Translations under genes and position numbers: made by a program | Origin: a virus | Reading direction: 5' to 3' (one strand) | Virus record (IMG/VR): IMGVR_UViG_3300025732_000019 | Length of the DNA: 64,000 nt | In this document: one piece after another, positions 3,001 through 61,316 of the stretch | Numbering within the stretch: position 1 is the stretch's first letter | Layout: the number at the start of each line of letters is the position of its first letter | Notes under the pieces: generated by a model | What the model was told of the DNA's origin: nothing | Database searches by the model: none | The model's input: the letters and a program-made list of their open reading frames with translations, nothing else

Positions 3001-5439
3001 CGTGGCGGTCGAGAGATCACCATTTGCGAACGCGGTGTTGCTACTCTTATACAACACCTTGCGTAAGTTCATCACATCCGGTGTCTTCAGTGAGTATGCG
3101 AACCCGGCAGTGGCATTCAGTGTGTGAAACTCGATCTGCCCCTTCGACAATGCTGACGTGGTGTTCGAATACACTGCAGACGTGTTGCCCACGTAGTAGA
3201 CTTTTTCACGCGCCGGGTATCCGGTGACTAACGCCTTTCCGAGTGCGCTAAAGGTACGCGTATTGCTGGTTGACGAACCGTGATGATACGTGAACGACAG
3301 CACATACTGGCCACCCACAGACGCGACACTCGCATTGGACAGACACCGCACAGAAGAATTCACGTTTGCAGCATCTGCCCACTGAATGACTTGACCGTAA
3401 CCCTTATTGTCTGTCGTCAGATCGAATACAGTGAAGTATTCCTGTGCACTGGCAGCACTCAACGTTCCAACGGGCACGCTGAATGTGTTACCCGCAAAGA
3501 CAACGGACAGAGCACCGTTCGACGCACTGCTAAACGTACGTGTGTTCGATGCGGATTGCAGCCATGTGCTAAACTCCGCAGTAGCAATACCAATCGTGTT
3601 GGCCTTGACGAATCGTTCGGGGATTTGGTATAGCAGTGAGCTATCGTTGACCCCTTCCACATACGTATATCCTGCGGGAGTGCCGTCGAGCTTACTATCC
3701 GGCGCCACATCGGCTTGGAAGACCAGATTCGACGCATAGGGTGCGGCAGTATTTGCAGAACCAAACAATGCAAACGCATCCACATCGCGTGTCTGAAACT
3801 TCAACGAGTACGTGGTGTTGGCGTTTGGCAACGCAGGCAAGAACTCACGTAGAGTGACGTATGCGTGCGTCGCATTTCCCACCACATAGTTGTTCACGGT
3901 AAACGTGCCACTGACGGGTGAGTCGGCACCACCAAGCGTGATGGTTGCTCCTTCAATTGCACCATCTTTTTCCGGTCGCCCATTTCCAATCGTGACTGTC
4001 AGCGTAAACGCAACGTTGTTATTGACGGCGGCCGCCACCACATTACTCGACAAGCTCGCAAACTGCACGTCGCTGAAAAACAGTCGATACACGCTATTGT
4101 TCGCATACGTATCGATCTGCAACTGCGACGGCACCCGATGCGTTTCGATCATGCGCACCTTTGCGGTACCGATCTTGCTATACGCATACGTGCCGCTGGT
4201 CGCTACGTTGATCGATGCCGCGTTCGTGCAGTGAATATCAACCGTGGTCGTGTTCGCAAAGTAACTGTTGGGGGCCGCAGCCGACACACGGTTCGCGTAG
4301 ACGTAACTGCCTACCGACAATGCGAGAGTGCGGTTGTCTGCATTCGCGGTTTCTCGGCCTTTGCGGATGATCGTGTTGACTGTCTGTGTTGTTTCGATTT
4401 CGTAGCCCTGCACGTATGCTTTGCCGGCACCGATAGACAGGTAGAACGTATTCGCGTCACTTGGGTTTTCGTCAATCACGGGTACGAACGGGCGCACGAC
4501 ATAGTTGCCCGATTCATCGTACGTGCGACGAGCGAGAATATCATTCAGTTCTTCGGAGCGCACATATCGCTGTGAGGTGCGGGTGTATTGGATCTGGCCA
4601 TCCACGACACGGCACAGTTCAATGAAGTTCGCATCCGCATCTGTATCCAGTGTGCGTTTTGCTAACGTCAGACGCATGCGGAAACGATGCGCGCCAACGG
4701 CGCCATTGTTCGCGGGATCAAGCAGCGTCTCACCGACTACCGCATCCAACTCGTCGAGAATGTCTTCAGCGATCTCCAAGCCCACACGGTATGAGGGGGT
4801 GCTGCTCAACGCATCCAGTACAATCGTTTGGGGCTTCACATGCACATAGAAGCCAGAGACGAACACCACACCTTCATCGATGCTGGCCGTCGATGCGGCC
4901 GAGAACACTTCACTGTTGGTGCCCGTGGAGAAAGTCGCTTGCTTGGTAGCATCGGTAGCAAGCTGCACCGTGCCGGATGGCAAAAACGCTCCTGCACCAG
5001 CATACTTGAAGACAAGATAGTTATTGCTGGTTTCGCCATCGTCAACACTGACGTATTGCACGACGGTCGCTTTTGTCGTGTTGGCGCTGGTATCGAAAAT
5101 ATTGGTGGGCGTATTCGTATCGCGGTCGTAGAAATTCGTCAGCGTTGTGGCAGGCAGCACCTGACCACTGGTCGCTTGCACATCCACAGCAATTTGTGCA
5201 CCATACACACGGTCGCCATCACGGAACTGTGCGGTACCGAGTCGCTGCAATTGCGCTTGCAGCAGTGTCTGTACCTGTGTCAGTTCGCGAGACTGCACGC
5301 CATAGCGAGGGCGGAAGAGAATGCGATGAAAATCAAACTCTTCACCGCGTAACTCACCCGTAGTGGTATTCGCTATGGTGTAGTAGTCGTCGTAATATTC
5401 AGACCGTAGAATGTTTTGTGTGGTATTACTAATCGCCAT
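1..5439 (-). CDS. Large virion structural protein, DUF4815/VrlC-like (3' end beyond window; absent from ORF track)
   Basis: Minus-strand frame from ATG at 5439 reads MAISNTTQNILRSEYYDDYY...FHRILFRPRYGVQSRELTQVQTLLQAQLQRLG, matching the YYDDF..ILFRP...QARELT.LQ N-terminus of T4-like DUF4815 proteins; lies directly downstream of gp8. Openness of the full frame was spot-checked only. Confidence 0.8.
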   Translation of the reverse strand, partial: MAISNTTQNILRSEYYDDYYTIANTTTGELRGEEFDFHRILFRPRYGVQSRELTQVQTLLQAQLQRLGTAQFRDGDRVYGAQIAVDVQATSGQVLPATTLTNFYDRDTNTPTNIFDTSANTTKATVVQYVSVDDGETSNNYLVFKYAGAGAFLPSGTVQLATDATKQATFSTGTNSEVFSAASTASIDEGVVFVSGFYVHVKPQTIVLDALSSTPSYRVGLEIAEDILDELDAVVGETLLDPANNGAVGAHRFRMRLTLAKRTLDTDADANFIELCRVVDGQIQYTRTSQRYVRSEELNDILARRTYDESGNYVVRPFVPVIDENPSDANTFYLSIGAGKAYVQGYEIETTQTVNTIIRKGRETANADNRTLALSVGSYVYANRVSAAAPNSYFANTTTVDIHCTNAASINVATSGTYAYSKIGTAKVRMIETHRVPSQLQIDTYANNSVYRLFFSDVQFASLSSNVVAAAVNNNVAFTLTVTIGNGRPEKDGAIEGATITLGGADSPVSGTFTVNNYVVGNATHAYVTLREFLPALPNANTTYSLKFQTRDVDAFALFGSANTAAPYASNLVFQADVAPDSKLDGTPAGYTYVEGVNDSSLLYQIPERFVKANTIGIATAEFSTWLQSASNTRTFSSASNGALSVVFAGNTFSVPVGTLSAASAQEYFTVFDLTTDNKGYGQVIQWADAANVNSSVRCLSNASVASVGGQYVLSFTYHHGSSTSNTRTFSALGKALVTGYPAREKVYYVGNTSAVYSNTTSALSKGQIEFHTLNATAGFAYSLKTPDVMNLRKVLYKSSNTAFANGDLSTATDVTEYFTLDSGQRDNSYEYGRAIVNNGAASVIKPTGRLLMIFDWFQHNGIGYATVDSYLTSNNIALGLSYDTIPDYMSPRFNRKINLREVLDFRPTRSNYNFQSSALVYAASDSTSNTQFVDTTSGASYLTPVSDDVWNGSYQFYLARIDKIALYPDGAFHVIEGQANQSPVPPSDDNQGLLFYQVTVPPYTLADANNVPIDVKLRTYDHKRYTMKDLSRMEDRVAHLEYYTSLSQLERNARDQSITDQDNLERYKNGILVDGFVGTGVANVIDPDFTASIDTYAHTLNPGFRSTNFQFAVDSANSNTFGVSVVGDMAIPAYSQSAFVTQPLATHAISVNPFNIGSFYGKVRLSPAVDTWKSTTTRPAQVIDMGGPTQAWVDANLPSYTNWGEWDTTWSGTSVSGGSRQDWWVPENWTPNAHDWRSMRETTTSWQDIETTSTQQRSGTRFDYVSQTTTANFGNLVVDTSIVHHMRNRDIVFAADGLRPSATLYPFFDGVDVKNYVQRANKLRLVPTTTERAFFVGQTVYVKTPLSGTISTTTACSTITGTSTAFDEQLLPNQLVRVELSGTTFDRYISSSANNTSATLLSTAPATLAGATLSTLTPVTISDVASRVTGDTIEYTISVVRVVRDADNDAATPYPVRAGALANSSGSGSTLIVPSSARGSSFTLNVNTAIVASGVVRAYNDGTHIIRFESDMTTDTVSGNPRIYFVSGPGAGQFATINTASYNVSTKSATLVTAGLSNITVGSTIYSIGNMTSESFLANATVTASRAGTVSGAFHLQDGTFAAGTRLFRLTDSASDVVSDATTTAETNYTASGLNVTEQNFSVSTRSVGINRSGVTDSRTQVDRTRVENTTVEWVDPLAQTFLVDARQYPQGVMVSSLDLAFATKPTDDIPVIVELRPVVNGYPSSNQLVPCLSDSGQATVSMRQDRVNTTTAPNFSDANTYTRFAFAAPVHLQPGLEYAIVVRSDSDAYTVYTGELGGTVIGTDQKVAKQP

Positions 5440-30377: not shown

Positions 30378-30453
30378 GAGCTTGTAGCTCAATTGGCAGA
30401 GCAGCAGCCTCTTAAGCTGTTGGTTGAAGGTTCGACTCCTTCCGGGCTCACCA
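30378..30453 (+). tRNA. tRNA-Lys(CTT)
   Basis: Cloverleaf, loop CT-CTT-AA, CCA. Confidence 0.92.
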
Positions 30454-30487
30454 CGTTTTTTGACAACTGCATATCATCCGAAAATGG

Positions 30488-30564
30488 CGCGGGAATGGAG
30501 CAACGGTGGCTCATCAGCCTCATAACCTGAAAATCGGTGGGTTCAATTCCCACTCCCGCAACCA
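30488..30564 (+). tRNA. tRNA-fMet(CAT), initiator-like
   Basis: C1:A72 mismatch, loop CT-CAT-AA, CCA; anticodon stem lacks three G-C pairs. Confidence 0.8.
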
Positions 30565-30565
30565 T

Positions 30566-30639
30566 CCGCATGTCGCTCAATGGCAGAGCAGCACGTTTAC
30601 ACCGTGCCTATGGGAGTTCGATTCTCTCCGTGCGGACCA
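30566..30639 (+). tRNA. tRNA-Val(TAC)
   Basis: GCACG-TT-TAC-AC-CGTGC, CCA. Confidence 0.9.
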
Positions 30640-30644
30640 GTTGT

Positions 30645-30728
30645 ACCGATGTGGCGGAAAGGCATACGCGCTAGTCTGAGATACTAGTGGGGCAACCCAT
30701 AAGAGTTCGACTCTCTTCATCGGTACCA
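30645..30728 (+). tRNA. tRNA-Leu(GAG)
   Basis: CTAGT-CT-GAG-AT-ACTAG, variable arm, CCA. Confidence 0.9.
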
Positions 30729-30733
30729 GATAG

Positions 30734-30819
30734 GCCCGATTGGCGTAATTGGCAGCCGCGCTTGCCTTAGAAGCAAGTGTCTTATTGACGTGTAGGTTCG
30801 ACTCCTACATCGGGCACCA
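30734..30819 (+). tRNA. tRNA-Leu(TAG)
   Basis: CTTGC-CT-TAG-AA-GCAAG, variable arm, CCA. Confidence 0.9.
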
Positions 30820-30828
30820 GATTGTCAT

Positions 30829-30918
30829 GGAGAGTTGGCTGAGTGGCCGAAAGCAGCAGGTTGCTAACCTGTCGTGGTGTCACAACCACCACTGGTTCGA
30901 ATCCAGTACTCTCCGCCA
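30829..30918 (+). tRNA. tRNA-Ser(GCT)
   Basis: GCAGG-TT-GCT-AA-CCTGT, long variable arm, G73, CCA. Confidence 0.92.
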
Positions 30919-30921
30919 GTT

Positions 30922-30998
30922 GGGGTTGTAGTTTAGTTGGTGAGAACACTCGCCTGTCACGCGAGAGGTCGCGGGTTCGATCCCCGTCAACCCCGCCA
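30922..30998 (+). tRNA. tRNA-Asp(GTC)
   Basis: CTCGC-CT-GTC-AC-GCGAG, CCA. Confidence 0.92.
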
Positions 30999-31003
30999 AA
31001 TAT

Positions 31004-31077
31004 TGGGATGTAGTGTAATGGGAGCACCGGAGTCTCTGAAGCTCTTTGTCTAGGTTCGAATCCTAGCATCCCAGCCA
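31004..31077 (+). tRNA. tRNA-Gln(CTG)
   Basis: Loop CT-CTG-AA, U1-A72, CCA. Confidence 0.88.
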
Positions 31078-31085
31078 GATTTCAT

Positions 31086-31159
31086 TACCATGTCGTCCAA
31101 TGGCAGGACAACGGACTTTGAATCCGTGAATGGTGGTTCGAGTCCACCCGTGGTAGCCA
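31086..31159 (+). tRNA. tRNA-Gln(TTG)
   Basis: ACGGA-CT-TTG-AA-TCCGT, CCA. Confidence 0.9.
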
Positions 31160-31165
31160 CGTTTT

Positions 31166-31250
31166 GCCGGGTTCGCATAGTGGCGATTGCACCGCTCTTG
31201 TAAGGCGGCGAGGAAACTCCACGTCGGTTCGAGTCCGACACCCGGCTCCA
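31166..31250 (+). tRNA. tRNA-Thr(TGT) with long variable arm
   Basis: CCGCT-CT-TGT-AA-GGCGG, extra arm GAG-GAAA-CTC, CCA. Confidence 0.8.
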
Positions 31251-31254
31251 GTAT

Positions 31255-31330
31255 GCCATCGTAGCTCAATTGGGAGAGCAAGACTTTCGTAAAGTCGAGG
31301 TTGGAGGTTCAAGCCCTCTCGATGGCTCCA
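31255..31330 (+). tRNA. tRNA-Thr(CGT)
   Basis: GACT-TT-CGT-AA-AGTC, CCA. Confidence 0.85.
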
Positions 31331-31333
31331 TCT

Positions 31334-31410
31334 CGGAACGTAGCTCAGTTGGTTAGAGCAATCGCTTGATAAGCGATAGGTCGCTGGTTCGACTCCAGCC
31401 GTTCCGACCA
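31334..31410 (+). tRNA. tRNA-Ile(GAT)
   Basis: ATCGC-TT-GAT-AA-GCGAT, CCA. Confidence 0.92.
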
Positions 31411-31417
31411 CACATGT

Positions 31418-31491
31418 GGGTCAGAAGTGTTATGGTAGCACAGTGGCCTCCAAAACCGCGAGCGTAGGTTCGACTCCTACCTGATCCGCCA
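31418..31491 (+). tRNA. tRNA-Trp(CCA)
   Basis: Loop CT-CCA-AA, G73, CCA. Confidence 0.85.
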
Positions 31492-31516
31492 ATTTATTGC
31501 GAGTTATTTAATTTAC

Positions 31517-31591
31517 GGCGGTATCTTCTAATGGTTAGGAAAGTGCTCTTTCAAGGCAACAATCGGGGTTCGATTCCCCGTACCGCTACCA
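31517..31591 (+). tRNA. tRNA-Glu(TTC)
   Basis: Loop CT-TTC-AA, CCA. Confidence 0.85.
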
Positions 31592-31604
31592 GTATTTTGA
31601 TTAT

Positions 31605-31679
31605 GCCGCTTAGGCTTAGACAGCGAAGCACGACATTGGTAATGTCGAGAGCAGGGCGCACGTCCCTGAAGCGGCTCCA
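31605..31679 (+). tRNA. tRNA-Thr(GGT), atypical T-loop
   Basis: CGACA-TT-GGT-AA-TGTCG; T-loop CGCACGT instead of TTCRANY; CCA. Confidence 0.7.
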
Positions 31680-31683
31680 TTTC

Positions 31684-31759
31684 GGGCCCGTAGCTCAGTT
31701 GGGAGAGCGCCGCCTTTGCAAGGCGGATGTCGCAGGTTCGATCCCTGTCGGGTCCACCA
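31684..31759 (+). tRNA. tRNA-Ala(TGC)
   Basis: G3:U70, CCGCC-TT-TGC-AA-GGCGG, CCA. Confidence 0.93.
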
Positions 31760-31764
31760 GTTTC

Positions 31765-31850
31765 GGCGCGTTCGCATAGCGGCAATTGCATCTGGCTGTA
31801 AACCAGACGACCCACGGTCTACGGTAGTTCGAGTCTACCACGCGCCACCA
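31765..31850 (+). tRNA. tRNA-Tyr(GTA)
   Basis: TCTGG-CT-GTA-AA-CCAGA, variable arm, CCA. Confidence 0.9.
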
Positions 31851-31852
31851 TC

Positions 31853-31932
31853 TTTACCGACCGATACGTGTAGAGTATATCCACACGCAGTAAGTCCATC
31901 AAGGGTCGCAACCTTGGGCAACGGTCGGTAAA
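31853..31932 (+). ncRNA. Unidentified three-way-junction RNA inside tRNA array
   Basis: 11-bp closing stem TTTACCGACCG/CGGTCGGTAAA, inner stems CGTGT/ACACG and CAAGG/CCTTG. Confidence 0.65.
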
Positions 31933-31941
31933 TCTTTTTGT

Positions 31942-32016
31942 TGGGATGTAGCTCAATGGCAGAGCGTTCGGCTGTTAACCGAATGGTTGTAGGTTCGAGT
32001 CCTACCGTCCCAGCCA
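31942..32016 (+). tRNA. tRNA-Asn(GTT)
   Basis: TTCGG-CT-GTT-AA-CCGAA, CCA. Confidence 0.93.
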
Positions 32017-32026
32017 TCTCTAAAAC

Positions 32027-32100
32027 GCGGCATTGGTGTAGTGGAAGCATGGAACCTTGCCAAGGTTCAGGTATCGGATCGTTACCGATATGCCGCTCCA
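32027..32100 (+). tRNA. tRNA-Gly(GCC)
   Basis: GAACC-TT-GCC-AA-GGTTC, T-loop ATCGTTA, CCA. Confidence 0.8.
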
Positions 32101-32101
32101 C

Positions 32102-32172
32102 GCGGGTATGGTATATCGGTTGTGCCTCGGCCTTCCAAGCCGAAGAAGTCGGTTCGACCCCGACTACCCGCT
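32102..32172 (+). tRNA. tRNA-Gly(TCC), no encoded CCA
   Basis: TCGGC-CT-TCC-AA-GCCGA. Confidence 0.85.
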
Positions 32173-32188
32173 TACCCAATCCATTTTT

Positions 32189-32263
32189 GTGCCGTTGGCT
32201 GATTGACGAGGCGAACGCCTGCAAAGCGTTTTCAAGATGGTTTGATTCCATCACGGCACTCCA
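32189..32263 (+). tRNA. tRNA-Cys(GCA)
   Basis: AACGC-CT-GCA-AA-GCGTT, U73, CCA. Confidence 0.85.
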
Positions 32264-32268
32264 TCTAT

Positions 32269-32344
32269 GGTGGTATAACTCGATTGGAACAGAGGGCAGA
32301 CTGTGACTCTGCTGAAGCGGGTTCGATTCCCGTATACCACCCCA
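32269..32344 (+). tRNA. tRNA-His(GTG)
   Basis: G-1:C73, GCAGA-CT-GTG-AC-TCTGC, CCA. Confidence 0.88.
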
Positions 32345-32347
32345 TAT

Positions 32348-32424
32348 CGGAGAGTGGGCTAAAGGCTGGCCGCCTGCCTTGGGAGCAGGATATCAAGCGA
32401 GTTCGATTCTCGCCTCTCCGACCA
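32348..32424 (+). tRNA. tRNA-Pro(TGG)
   Basis: CCTGC-CT-TGG-GA-GCAGG, CCA. Confidence 0.88.
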
Positions 32425-32428
32425 TCTT

Positions 32429-32503
32429 GGGTCGTAAGCATTCGTGGTGATGCTCTAGACTTTTAATCTGGCGAACCGAGTTCGACTCTCGGACGACCCA
32501 CCA
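32429..32503 (+). tRNA. tRNA-Lys(TTT)
   Basis: CTAGA-CT-TTT-AA-TCTGG, CCA. Confidence 0.88.
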
Positions 32504-32531
32504 TTTATCTTTCGGATGATATGCAGTATAT

Positions 32532-32607
32532 GTCGGTGTGGTCTAACGGAGAAGGCACGGTGTTTCTACCACCGAAGATGTGGGTTCGACTCCTACCACC
32601 GACACCA
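32532..32607 (+). tRNA. tRNA-Arg(TCT)
   Basis: CGGTG-TT-TCT-AC-CACCG, CCA. Confidence 0.85.
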
Positions 32608-32611
32608 GTAT

Positions 32612-32686
32612 ACCAGTGAAGCCGATTGGCGAGGCGCGACGCCCATACCGTCGTTGTAGTGGGTTCGATTCCCTCCGCTGGTACCA
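32612..32686 (+). tRNA. tRNA-Met or Ile2 (CAT) with C33
   Basis: CGACG-CC-CAT-AC-CGTCG, CCA. Confidence 0.75.
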
Positions 32687-32687
32687 C

Positions 32688-32765
32688 GGGCACCGAGCGA
32701 GTCTGGTGATTCCGCGCCTGTCTGAAGAGCAGGAGAATGTGGTTCGATTCCACAGGTGCCCACCA
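32688..32765 (+). tRNA. tRNA-Phe(GAA)
   Basis: CCTGT-CT-GAA-GA-GCAGG, CCA. Confidence 0.85.
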
Positions 32766-32772
32766 CATGTAC

Positions 32773-32855
32773 ACCCGCGTGTCGTAATGGCAGCCGAGGT
32801 AGACTCAAAATCTACTGCTCGAAAGAGCGTACTGGTTCGATTCCAGTCGCGGGTA
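32773..32855 (+). tRNA. tRNA-Leu(CAA), no encoded CCA
   Basis: GTAGA-CT-CAA-AA-TCTAC, variable arm. Confidence 0.88.
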
Positions 32856-32868
32856 CTATCTAAGTACA

Positions 32869-33420
32869 ATGAGCGCAGATATGGAACAGACACTCTTACT
32901 CAACGCAACCTACGAACCAATGGACGTCGTGCACTGGCAACGAGCGATGACGTTATGGTGTCAGGGAAAAGTGGAAATCGTCGAAACACATGATCGCGAA
33001 GTGCATGCGGTGACGTTCTCCTTCAAACTACCGTCTGTGGTGCGACTCCTTCGGTGTGTGCGTTCCAAGCGGCGGCCTGAAGTACAGTTCACACGGGCGA
33101 ACATCTATGCCCGAGATAACTATACCTGTCAATACTGTCGTCAGACCTATGCCACGCACGAACTGACATTTGATCATGTGCTGCCAGTCTCCCGAGGCGG
33201 GAAACGTAGTTGGGATAATATCGTCACGTGTTGTCTTCCGTGCAATCGTTCCAAAGGTTCCAAGACGCCACACGAGGCGCAGATGGTGTTGCTGCGTAAA
33301 CCTGCGAAACCCGCGTATACACCGGTGTTTCGTATCACACTCGGTATGCGGAAGACGCCCGAGAACTGGCGCGACTATTTGTATTGGTCAACAGAACTTG
33401 TCAACGACAACGATGCATAA
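32869..33420 (+). CDS. HNH endonuclease
   Basis: LLLNATYEP, RDNYTCQYC, TFDHVLPVSRGG...WDNIVTCC..CN..KG. Confidence 0.93.
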   Translation: MSADMEQTLLLNATYEPMDVVHWQRAMTLWCQGKVEIVETHDREVHAVTFSFKLPSVVRLLRCVRSKRRPEVQFTRANIYARDNYTCQYCRQTYATHELTFDHVLPVSRGGKRSWDNIVTCCLPCNRSKGSKTPHEAQMVLLRKPAKPAYTPVFRITLGMRKTPENWRDYLYWSTELVNDNDA

Positions 33421-33521
33421 CAGGAGATCGTGACGGATGCTCTCTGAATTGGGTGACATTGCTATGGCGTGGTTTCGTTCAACCTTTTTTGTGGTATAAT
33501 ATGTCTCGTGTAACATTGTAT

Positions 33522-33608
33522 TGGCGTGTGTCCGGAATGGCATCGGCCCTGACTGTTAATCAGTGCGCCCGAAAGGGAATGTAGGTTCGAATCCTACCAC
33601 GCCAGCCA
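33522..33608 (+). tRNA. tRNA-Asn(GTT) with long variable arm
   Basis: CTGA-CT-GTT-AA-TCAG, extra arm CCC-GAAA-GGG, G73, CCA; own TGTGGTATAAT promoter at 33490-33500. Confidence 0.8.
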
Positions 33609-54663: not shown

Positions 54664-55383
54664 ATGCGGTCGTTCAAATCATTCCTAACGCTCGACGAAG
54701 GCGTCTTCGATCCGGGGATTCTGAAAGCCATTTTTATGGCGGGTGGGCCCGGCAGTGGAAAATCCACGAAAGCCGAAGAACTCTTCGGATTGGATGCGGG
54801 GTTCAAGTCGTCATTCAGTCACTACGGCTTGAAGGTGGTCAACAGCGATCACATGTTCGAATATTTGCTGAAGCAAATGCATGTCTCTCCGAAAGATCTC
54901 GCGAACATTGAACGCGAAGACCCCGCTCGATTCCTGCATCTCACTGCCGACCCGCATGGCCCACGTGCACGGGCGAAAGCTTTGGTGGATCGTCAACGAG
55001 AACTCTATATTCAAGGGCGCTTGGGGATGATCATTGATGGCACGGGTGATGACTATGCAAAACTTGCCACCAAGAAACATCATCTGGAAGACTATGGATA
55101 TGATACGGGAATGGTGTTCGTGCACACGTCACTTGAAGTTGCGCTGGAACGGAATCGTCAACGGCCGCGTCAGTTGCCAGACGGATTAGTTACCGATATT
55201 TGGCACAACTGTCAAAAAAACCGTGAGCATTATCAAAAACTGTTTGGAAAGCACTACGTAGAAGTCTACAACACGACCGGTGGCGTTGTGCATCAAGTCG
55301 TACAACGAGCAGTGCAAACCTTTATTCATACGCCCGTGCAGAACCCCAAAGGTCAGGCGTGGGTTCGCAGTCAGACTCTCTAG
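54664..55383 (+). CDS. P-loop kinase (zeta-toxin-like fold) with capsid-targeting-like leader
   Basis: KAIFMAGGPGSGKS, VNSD, IIDGTG, GYDTGMVFV.TSLEVALERN. Confidence 0.8.
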   Translation: MRSFKSFLTLDEGVFDPGILKAIFMAGGPGSGKSTKAEELFGLDAGFKSSFSHYGLKVVNSDHMFEYLLKQMHVSPKDLANIEREDPARFLHLTADPHGPRARAKALVDRQRELYIQGRLGMIIDGTGDDYAKLATKKHHLEDYGYDTGMVFVHTSLEVALERNRQRPRQLPDGLVTDIWHNCQKNREHYQKLFGKHYVEVYNTTGGVVHQVVQRAVQTFIHTPVQNPKGQAWVRSQTL

Positions 55384-56376: not shown

Positions 56377-56603
56377 TGCAGTCATTTCGAGCACACGTCG
56401 CAGAAGTCTCGCGACTGAAGCGGTTCTCGGTTGATTACATCTATCAGACCGCGACGGGCGGCCCGCATCGTACGCAATTGATTTCGACGAACACGCAACT
56501 CCCGAACCTTGCCACCAGCGAGACAGCAGTTTTGGCATGGCTGCGAAAGCGGCATGTTGGGTGTGAGATTACGATCATTTCCCTTGATTGGCAGAGTCTC
56601 TAA
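56376..56603 (+). CDS. Small protein with capsid-targeting-like leader
   Basis: GTG start overlapping upstream stop; QSFRAHVAE. Confidence 0.45.
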   Translation: MQSFRAHVAEVSRLKRFSVDYIYQTATGGPHRTQLISTNTQLPNLATSETAVLAWLRKRHVGCEITIISLDWQSL

Positions 56604-56609
56604 CTCCGC

Positions 56610-56748
56610 TTGACATCCGCATGTATGTGCGGTATACTTGCTTTCGTTGTTGGTGATGCGTTTTGAAATTTCCATTGCATGCCAACGTTGGCAGACGTGG
56701 TACAGAAGCAAAAGAATGCTTGACACCGACTCTGCAATGTGAGATAAT
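56610..56748 (+). promoter_or_regulatory. Tandem sigma70 promoters
   Basis: TTGACA(56610)-17-TATACT and TTGACA(56720)-17-GATAAT. Confidence 0.75.
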
Positions 56749-56824
56749 AGTTCTCATGGTGATGAACGAAAACACTGGCGACGGTTATCACCCTTCAAAC
56801 TTCAGAGCCAGTCACAAAGGTAAA

Positions 56825-57151
56825 ATGAATATGTCGAACACGTCAATGACCGCTACGCAGAAGCTGCTTTCCTACCTCAAGACCGGTCGCGATATTACCG
56901 CTGCACAGGCGCAGAGCCGCTTCGGTATCTCGAACGTTTCTGCTCGGGTGTCGGAGCTTCGCAAGGCGGGTTATTCGGTGTACCTGAACGAGAAGGTCAC
57001 GTCGAACGGCAAGACGATCAAGGCGTACCGCCTCGGTACTCCGACGCGTCGTCAGGTGGCGATCGCGAACTTCGTCGAGAGCAACCCGAACTTCTTCGGC
57101 AAGGCGTCGTGGATCGGTGACCGCGCCGCGCGTCTGATGAAGACCGTGTAG
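56825..57151 (+). CDS. Winged helix-turn-helix DNA-binding protein
   Basis: KLLSYLKTG..IT...A..RFGI....ARVSELRKAGY.V....YRLG. Confidence 0.82.
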   Translation: MNMSNTSMTATQKLLSYLKTGRDITAAQAQSRFGISNVSARVSELRKAGYSVYLNEKVTSNGKTIKAYRLGTPTRRQVAIANFVESNPNFFGKASWIGDRAARLMKTV

Positions 57152-57156
57152 TCATG

Positions 57157-57187
57157 ACGAGGGGCTTCGGCCCCTCGTTTTGTCTTT
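57157..57187 (+). terminator. Intrinsic terminator
   Basis: ACGAGGGGC-TTCG-GCCCCTCGT then TTTGTCTTT. Confidence 0.85.
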
Positions 57188-57247
57188 GCATCTCTGACGA
57201 GCCCGCAAGGGCGAAACATGCTGTGCACACACCAGCATGTCAGATGC
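57188..57247 (+). ncRNA. Hammerhead ribozyme, type I
   Basis: Stem I GCATCT/AGATGC, core CTGACGA, stem II GCCC-GCAA-GGGC, GAAA, stem III CATGCTG/CAGCATG, GTC cleavage triplet ending at 57241. Confidence 0.9.
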
Positions 57248-57422
57248 TGTTCAAGGGGTGTCGTATCCTCTTGAAGTGATATCGCGTGTTGCATACGAAC
57301 CAACCGTGATACCATAAGCCTCAATGACAGGAACGTTGGTGGTGACAGGCGTCATTGAGTATATAGAAACCATCGACGCCGTGGATGCGAGTGCACTTGC
57401 GCCACGGCGTTATTATTTTTTC
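57242..57422 (+). ncRNA. Unidentified structured RNA (kissing loop + pseudoknot + terminal hairpin)
   Basis: Four consecutive hairpins with two independent loop complementarities; ends in a U-rich run. Confidence 0.6.
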
Positions 57423-57427
57423 TCCCT

Positions 57428-58273
57428 ATGACGACCGCACACGACTATCTCTCACTCATTGGTGATTGGCAGGATCCACTTCCCACACCACATCTCGAAG
57501 AACACGATGGTGTCTTGGTGGTGCGCGACGATCTGCTCGGCGCAGGCTCTAAAGTGCGCTTTCTCGATTATCTCATCGGGCACGATCCATCGAACACTGA
57601 TGTGCGTGAATGGGTTTTCGGCTCATGCCCTGCGACGGGCTACGCGCAGATCAGTCTCCCCGTTGTCTGCGAACGATACCAGAAAAAGGCCGTGCTCTTC
57701 ATGGCGCAACGGGATCCTTCGAAGTTTCATCCATACCAGCATCGCGGTCTTGCGCTCGGCGCCGATTATCGATGGGTGCCAAACGGTATGCTCAGTGTGA
57801 CGCAGAAACGTGCCCGTGATTATGCGAACGACGACCCGATGCATCGTCGTGTGCTCCCTCTTGGGTTGGAGCATCCCACGGTGATCGCCAGCATCATTCG
57901 TGTTGCTCGGAGTCTTCCTATTGTACCTGACGTGGTGTGGACGGTGGGCTCCAGCGGAACACTCTCGCGTGGTCTACAACTTGCATGGCCAGACGCAGAG
58001 GTGCATGTCGTGTCAGTCGGTCACACCATGACGGATCACGAACGCGGTCGAGCGATTCTCCACCGCTCTCCCTACAAGTTTGATAAACCGGTACGCCCGG
58101 AAGATGCACCTCCGTTTCCGAGTGCGCCGACATATGATGCGAAAGCATGGCGGATACTGCTCGATTGGCGACATACTCGCACACAGACACTGACGGTGCC
58201 ATCATCCGGACGTGAAGGCGCATTAAATATTCTCGCACATCAGAAAATTCTTCTCTGGAATGTAGGAGCGTAA
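57428..58273 (+). CDS. PLP-dependent fold-type II enzyme (ACC deaminase/cysteine desulfhydrase-like)
   Basis: VVRDDLL..GSKVR, VGSSGTL.RGLQ, PTYDAKAW, LWNVG. Confidence 0.8.
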   Translation: MTTAHDYLSLIGDWQDPLPTPHLEEHDGVLVVRDDLLGAGSKVRFLDYLIGHDPSNTDVREWVFGSCPATGYAQISLPVVCERYQKKAVLFMAQRDPSKFHPYQHRGLALGADYRWVPNGMLSVTQKRARDYANDDPMHRRVLPLGLEHPTVIASIIRVARSLPIVPDVVWTVGSSGTLSRGLQLAWPDAEVHVVSVGHTMTDHERGRAILHRSPYKFDKPVRPEDAPPFPSAPTYDAKAWRILLDWRHTRTQTLTVPSSGREGALNILAHQKILLWNVGA

Positions 58274-58539
58274 TGCGAAAATACTTCACCCGACCGTGTT
58301 TAGAATTAGCAGGTATTGAATTCGCCAGTTACTTCATCATCACGCTGAATACACGAGCAATTGCCTCGGTGAACTATGTGGGTACATTGGTGACAGATAT
58401 TTGCATTGCGGGATTGACGTTCACCGCCGTCAAGCGAATCGCGGAGGCCTCGACACGCGAAGAACAAGTGATGTACGTCGTAGGTGCGGCGCTTGGTGCG
58501 CTGGCAGCGTTGTGGTGTTCGACATTTATTTTTTTGTGA
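58273..58539 (+). CDS. Small membrane protein
   Basis: Three hydrophobic segments, Y..GAALGA. Confidence 0.6.
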   Translation: MRKYFTRPCLELAGIEFASYFIITLNTRAIASVNYVGTLVTDICIAGLTFTAVKRIAEASTREEQVMYVVGAALGALAALWCSTFIFL

Positions 58540-61223: not shown

Positions 61224-61316
61224 GCCCCTGTAGTGTAACGGTGAGCACCCGAGGCTTATACCCTCGCAGCCCTAGATGTGGGCGGAGTCTTGGTTCGAAT
61301 CCAAGCGGGGGTACCA
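61224..61316 (+). tRNA. tRNA-Ile(TAT) with long variable arm
   Basis: CGAGG-CT-TAT-AC-CCTCG, extra arm GCCC...GGGC, CCA. Confidence 0.8.

Follow-up and report, generated by a model that had tools for sequence, protein, structure and literature searches.

Hammerhead ribozymes have been known from the intergenic regions of phages and prophages since 2011 (Perreault et al., PMC3088659; Rfam RF00163, clan CL00010). Pistol ribozymes are found in association with genes of phages and with ribozymes of other kinds (Rfam RF02679; PMC4604425), and theta ribozymes, which are minimal HDV-like ribozymes, occur next to tRNA genes of gut phages (PMC10879173). In phage VIPR systems, vrRNA arrays that are interspersed with hammerheads release small functional RNAs (preprint 10.64898/2026.04.26.720920).

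The locus described here lies in a 64,000-nucleotide stretch of viral DNA (IMG/VR record IMGVR_UViG_3300025732_000019), the whole of which is referred to below as the window. An earlier note on the window, made from the sequence alone, had ascribed it to a T4-like phage, and the genes for a baseplate wedge, a hub-lysozyme, and a dNMP kinase that it carries agree with this. To our knowledge, the biological purpose of the many phage and bacterial hammerheads has been unclear since their discovery in 2011. The present locus is an unusually clean case, in that a single ribozyme is tied to a conserved folded RNA and not to a particular gene.

The hammerhead motif and its conservation

The ribozyme occupies positions 57188-57247 of the + strand and was delineated with a descriptor of our own, by folding, and with a custom covariance model (R1, see below). 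An open stem I of six Watson-Crick pairs, the two strands of which are exact complements (57188-57193 and 57242-57247), encloses the core CUGACGA (57194-57200), a stem II of four Watson-Crick pairs (57201-57204 and 57209-57212) with a GCAA loop of the GNRA class (57205-57208), the GAA that represents G12, A13, and A14 (57213-57215), and a stem III of eight Watson-Crick pairs, the first being A15.1-U16.1, with a 9-nt loop (57216-57223 and 57233-57240). C17 is at 57241, which places the predicted scissile bond between 57241 and 57242, and the first unpaired base 3' of stem I is a U at position 1.7 (57248, + strand). The stretch thereby has all residues of the hammerhead core (C3 U4 G5 A6 N7 G8 A9, G12 A13 A14, and H17) and forms a three-helix junction with the standard core-flanking pairs (1.1-2.1, G10.1-C11.1, and A15.1-U16.1) and with stems II and III capped. 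The earlier note had listed every element of a type I hammerhead at these places on the + strand, and both a direct reading of the sequence and the descriptor agree with it. When both strands of the window were searched with the descriptor, 57188-57247 was the single hammerhead site.

Folding of the isolated 60 nt yields a minimum free energy structure with the shape of a hammerhead (-24 kcal/mol), and contexts of 74-111 nt also fold as a hammerhead, both in the window and in its closest relative, L002. When 291 nt of context are folded, the U-run of the upstream terminator is paired, in the structure of minimum free energy, with stem II and the ribozyme's GAAA (57176-57215); this competing fold was discounted, as it is specific to the window and is not conserved in L002. 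To evaluate chance as the source of the motif, 400 sequences of 64 kb were simulated with the dinucleotide statistics of the window. These contained one match to a relaxed descriptor and none as good as that observed (0/400; expectation 0.0025 per 64-kb window). Chance does not explain the motif at 57188-57247.

The Infernal search with Rfam hammerhead models that had been suggested as a check fell below threshold. At gathering score, the Rfam models found tRNAs only, and no hammerhead, in the whole window. In E-value mode, one hammerhead match was recovered, which was partial and circularly permuted and scored 21 bits to Hammerhead_3 (gathering score 48.5). Two relatives with a short stem III, L111 and L117, scored 30 bits on RF00163 Hammerhead_1 (gathering score 34). 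As the motif has all its defining features and strong comparative evidence behind it, we take these sub-threshold scores to reflect a limit of the seed alignments and do not count them against it. A gathering threshold is a property of one curated model and does not define the ribozyme, and the curated Rfam thresholds miss textbook-perfect hammerheads with a long stem III. The tRNA genes of the window include an array of 26 (30378-33605) and an isolated tRNA of 90 nt within a block of replication genes (61224-61313).

A blastn search with positions 56600-58300 returned no match among deposited phage genomes. Comparative evidence was gathered from contigs. With the downstream gene of 281 amino acids (aa) as the anchor, 80 viral contigs were fetched, among which only L002 was syntenic (five genes, 80-96% protein identity); the other 78 distinct contigs had no hammerhead within 3 kb. 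This indicates that the 281-aa gene was the wrong anchor and that the winged-helix gene upstream of the ribozyme is the right one. In L002 the ribozyme is at the same place as in the window, and the two copies differ at 10 of 60 nt. Eight of these differences make up four compensatory pair changes, while the remaining two fall at the free core position N7 and in loop III, such that no difference breaks the core or any pair.

A covariance model (R1) built from the window and L002, on which the window copy scores 92.3 bits, identified the ribozyme 3' of the winged-helix gene in L110, L117/L118, L111-L114, L119-L121, and L122. The same ribozyme, with the same winged-helix gene upstream, is thus present in six other uncultured phage lineages (L002 included). 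When the seven syntenic copies are aligned, standard pairs make up 99.1% of the stem cells and 11 of the 18 pairs have double changes, which none of 500 shuffles matched; slid controls were 22-40% paired. Fitting the underlying alignment to the model biases these counts somewhat towards the structure, though by far less than the effect observed. In plain MAFFT alignments, both that of the hammerheads (A1) and that of the downstream RNA (A9), the 3' strands are out of register, and neither alignment entered the pair counts. The syntenic hammerhead of L122 (L122:2410-2483) has a long insert in stem III and carries U3/A8 instead of C3/G8, a core covariation described as natural and active by Perreault et al. 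(2011, PMC3088659). The identification of the motif as a canonical type I hammerhead therefore stands, both on the sequence itself and on compensatory changes in all three stems across the six syntenic relatives. Collectively, these observations suggest that the 60 nt are a genuine and probably active type I hammerhead, with activity being predicted from sequence.

A pattern specific to this class of hammerhead, consisting of the core and this stem II, had no match in 185,579 prokaryote genomes and matched 4 viral and 24 metagenomic contigs. Many of the matches are type I hammerheads of the same proportions, with a stem I of six pairs and a stem II of four pairs with a GNRA loop. One contig carries ten type I hammerheads in 3.7 kb (L106:1-3732, - strand), each followed, a few bases on, by a ribosome-binding site and a gene, and another (L107) carries three; the clustered arrangement in L106 is of a kind described earlier in prophages (PMC3088659). 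Position 1.7 is U in 23 of 25 hammerheads of the class and the opposite base is a pyrimidine in 22 of 25, where 13 of the 25 come from two contigs and hence are not independent. Most natural hammerheads have a contact between a U in loop 1 and an A in loop 2, a tertiary motif that is needed for speed at low Mg (Dufour et al., PMC2632901). The U1.7 of the window (57248), the pyrimidine opposite, and the GNRA loop II match this published motif in sequence, which makes U1.7 and the final A of loop II candidate partners in a contact between stem I and loop II. Because U1.7 and a loop II ending in A fit the contact, the window copy is probably not a slow 'minimal' ribozyme.

The folded RNA downstream and the genes on either side

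The ribozyme, where present, is always located ahead of a conserved structured RNA that measures about 180-230 nt across lineages. In the window, the part that cleavage would release spans approximately 180 nt (57242-57422, + strand); it can be aligned between lineages, of which at least seven have the RNA, and has a fold z-score of -6.4. It comprises hairpin A (loop at 57259-57266), hairpin B (loop at 57292-57300), hairpin C (loop at about 57335-57343), a single-stranded partner segment (57369-57374), and a long terminal hairpin (57376-57410) with a T-run after it, all on the + strand. The consensus fold of the RNA from the window and L002 includes 9 compensatory pairs. The loops of hairpins A and B are complementary to each other (57261-66 and 57293-98) and would form kissing loops of 5-6 Watson-Crick pairs in seven of seven lineages, with five different sequence pairs; this degree of complementarity was reached by only 0.1-2% of composition-matched shuffles per case. 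The loop of hairpin C (57338-43) and the single strand at 57369-74 change together between lineages, as judged by eye, and likely form a pseudoknot.

No Rfam family was found for the downstream RNA of the window or its relatives. A closing helix in the consensus fold (57243-46 with 57370-73) was dropped, as it is invariant between the window and L002 and could not be traced by eye in L117 or L111. A match to the conserved RNA block in L109 was attributed to chance, since it lies inside a coding region and has no flanking similarity. A guide RNA of the VIPR type was likewise rejected because GGY/NN repeats are lacking: runs of at least three GGY/NN units were absent from the RNA of the window, L002, and L111.

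In most lineages a long hairpin with a U-run closes the RNA at its 3' end. The gene that follows varies by lineage (281, 87, 113, or 89 aa), unlike the ribozyme and the RNA, which are retained. In the window this gene encodes 281 aa (57428-58273, + strand; phrog_7093) and lies outside the conserved module. The terminal hairpin of the RNA ends 6 nt ahead of its start codon, and a consensus scan found no promoter-like site belonging to this gene.

On the upstream side, the ribozyme is preceded by a gene for a winged helix-turn-helix protein (56663-57151, + strand; HTH_39, Pfam PF14090, E 9.7e-08; phrog_4973). The start of this gene is uncertain, since homologues of 102-131 aa point to a start at 56756 or later. 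Two near-consensus sigma-70-like promoters ahead of this gene on the + strand (56610-56638 and 56720-56748), identified as pattern matches in a consensus scan (11/12 matches each), would drive the transcript that feeds the ribozyme. Between the gene and the ribozyme is a hairpin of 10 pairs with a T-run that resembles an intrinsic terminator (57156-57187, + strand). It adjoins the first base of the ribozyme at 57188, just as the earlier note had described a ribozyme that starts directly after the terminator of the winged-helix gene. The terminator is not kept among relatives: in L002 the hairpin is a different one and lacks a T-run, the T-run of L110 is weak, and other lineages have 85-250 nt of other sequence. 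In the alignment of the window and L002, conservation resumes exactly at the first base of the ribozyme. The lack of conservation in the terminator, together with the conservation that resumes at the ribozyme, suggests that transcription of the ribozyme is most simply explained as an extension of the winged-helix mRNA.

A gene for an AAA_33 or zeta-toxin-like kinase, with a weak match to polynucleotide kinase, recurs a few genes upstream of the ribozyme and RNA in three lineages (window 54664-55383; L111:1-131; L117:86-895). In L126, which lacks the ribozyme, RtcB is encoded nearby. Where genes for enzymes acting on RNA with 5'-OH or cyclic-phosphate ends lie near an RNA cut by a ribozyme, they may merit attention.

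Replacement, damage, and loss of the ribozyme

One lineage, L123, has no hammerhead and instead carries a pistol ribozyme (3047-3107; 43.8 bits against the RF02679 gathering score of 34.5). Part of the homologous RNA is located 3' of the pistol ribozyme (L123:3215-3367; nhmmer E 6e-9), and upstream of the matched part are two hairpins, the loops of which are again complementary. Another open reading frame separates the pistol ribozyme from the winged-helix gene, and the ribozyme is still adjacent to the RNA. In type I hammerheads and pistol ribozymes alike, the cut is placed such that almost all of the ribozyme stays with the 5' fragment and the 3' fragment keeps only a few bases. That two unrelated ribozymes occur in the same place, each of which would produce a 5' end that is nearly free of scars, is the strongest argument that release of the 5' end of the RNA is the function under selection.

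Other relatives have retained the RNA with an altered ribozyme or have lost the ribozyme. A hammerhead with G at position 16.1, and therefore a GGC cleavage site, is found in three contigs from three samples (L119:2415-2461, L120, and L121). This lineage is abundant, is represented by contigs of up to 87 kb, and has kept the downstream RNA. By the NUH/NHH rule, a site with G at 16.1 should cleave poorly, and the hammerhead of this lineage is thus probably impaired. In L129, the only match is weak (11.7 bits, E 0.12), has an altered core and a disrupted stem I, and is possibly a decayed relic. Searches with the custom model detected no hammerhead in L115/L116, L125, L126, or L128. The lack of a ribozyme in L115, L125, L126, and L128 and the relic in L129 suggest that cleavage is dispensable in some relatives. 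The natural swap in a sister lineage, together with natural loss or damage in other relatives, allows a direct test of the idea that the ribozyme exists to define the 5' end of a small RNA.

Possible roles of the ribozyme and comparison with known systems

We consider it probable that the hammerhead generates the 5' end of a small phage RNA lacking its own promoter. In the mechanism that we propose, the ribozyme would be transcribed as a 3' extension of an early winged-helix mRNA, by way of a terminator that is leaky or, in relatives, absent. It would fold during transcription and cut itself between 57241 and 57242. The upstream mRNA would retain almost the whole ribozyme and end in a 2',3'-cyclic phosphate, and the downstream product would start with a 5'-OH and carry only the six bases of the 3' strand of stem I. 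The released RNA of about 180 nt, with its kissing loops and likely pseudoknot, would end at its own terminator-like hairpin. The motif itself, the way in which it is conserved and covaries, its link to the RNA, and its exchange for a pistol ribozyme are observed; that the site is transcribed through, that cleavage takes place in vivo, and that a stand-alone RNA is the product is inferred.

The earlier note had proposed that read-through transcripts would be cut after 57241 and that this would set the 5' end of the downstream RNA. Such predicted cleavage agrees with four observations: the ribozyme and the RNA remain linked where the following gene differs, conservation does not extend to the upstream terminator, the type I layout would leave only 6 nt on the downstream product, and a pistol ribozyme replaces the hammerhead before the homologous RNA in L123. 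Some observations argue the other way. The G at 16.1 in L119-L121, the relic in L129, and the absence of the ribozyme from other relatives are among them, as is the window-specific competing fold. In the window, moreover, a good terminator directly precedes the ribozyme, such that few transcripts may pass it, and the next start codon is so near that the RNA could be a leader.

The latter point bears on a different reading, which we regard as unlikely, in which the hammerhead punctuates an operon between the winged-helix mRNA and the next mRNA and the 180 nt are the structured untranslated leader of the next gene. This is the model of Perreault et al. for phage hammerheads (PMC3088659), and it would be in keeping with the ten hammerheads of the same class in L106, each positioned just before a ribosome-binding site and a gene, as well as with a start codon within 6 nt of the RNA and a gene devoid of its own promoter-like site in the window. 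However, the gene that would possess this leader differs (281, 87, 113, or 89 aa) among lineages that keep both ribozyme and RNA. Moreover, a long hairpin with a U-run stands at the end of the RNA in most lineages, and the conserved kissing loops and the pseudoknot, which co-varies by eye, suggest a folded functional RNA and not a spacer.

We find it highly unlikely that the main role of the ribozyme lies upstream, in the 3' end or stability of the winged-helix mRNA, with the downstream RNA being incidental. From the known chemistry of hammerheads, a compact ribozyme fold and a cyclic phosphate could shield the mRNA from 3' exonucleases, and the linkage to the winged-helix gene is indeed conserved; yet this mRNA already has a terminator hairpin in the window, the pistol ribozyme of L123 is parted from the winged-helix gene by an open reading frame while remaining beside the RNA, and the conserved block starts exactly at the ribozyme and extends downstream, not upstream. 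A present lack of function, with the motif being either an inactive relic or a look-alike that arose by chance, would accord with the sub-threshold Rfam scores and with relatives that carry the G16.1 variant or a possibly decayed copy, but we judge it extremely improbable given a chance expectation far below one, a perfect core, and, among the seven lineages, compensatory changes in every stem and a core pair that covaries.

If the hammerhead does make the 5' end of the RNA, a broader proposal can be entertained, although we would stop short of favouring it: T4-like phages may use at least two interchangeable ribozymes, hammerhead and pistol, as a promoter-independent means of making the 5' end of an undescribed family of small RNAs, which would have kissing loops and a pseudoknot and be expressed early, together with a winged-helix regulator. 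If true, a concrete function open to testing could be assigned to phage hammerheads, and a new effector would be at hand in the RNA, such as a regulator or a decoy against host defence.

Among known systems, the theta ribozymes (PMC10879173) resemble the hammerhead of the window in being small self-cleaving ribozymes of phages with a proposed function in maturing the end of a non-coding RNA, and differ in the class of ribozyme, in the RNA concerned (theirs is a tRNA), and in the phages that carry them. As in the vrRNA arrays of VIPR systems (10.64898/2026.04.26.720920), a hammerhead is predicted here to free a small RNA from a longer phage transcript. Unlike vrRNA, the window's RNA lacks tandem GGY/NN repeats and is one RNA, not an array, and of the neighbouring genes scanned in the window none was recognised as encoding a RAMP-type protein. 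The pistol ribozyme (RF02679) holds the equivalent position before the homologous RNA in L123; its fold and core are unrelated to those of the hammerhead, and it is absent from the window.

The nearest counterparts are the hammerheads of Perreault et al. (PMC3088659), with which the window copy shares the catalytic core, the three-stem junction, an open stem I, and a position between phage genes on the coding strand. The class to which the window copy belongs, with a stem I of six pairs and a stem II of four pairs with a GNRA loop, is common in metagenomic phage-like contigs. In contrast to the hammerheads of Perreault et al. (PMC3088659), the copy in the window is below the Rfam gathering threshold, is single and not clustered, and precedes a conserved folded RNA and not a ribosome-binding site and gene. 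The ribozyme itself is thus of an already known sort, whereas its constant association with a folded RNA of an undescribed kind and the natural exchange of hammerhead for pistol are less ordinary.
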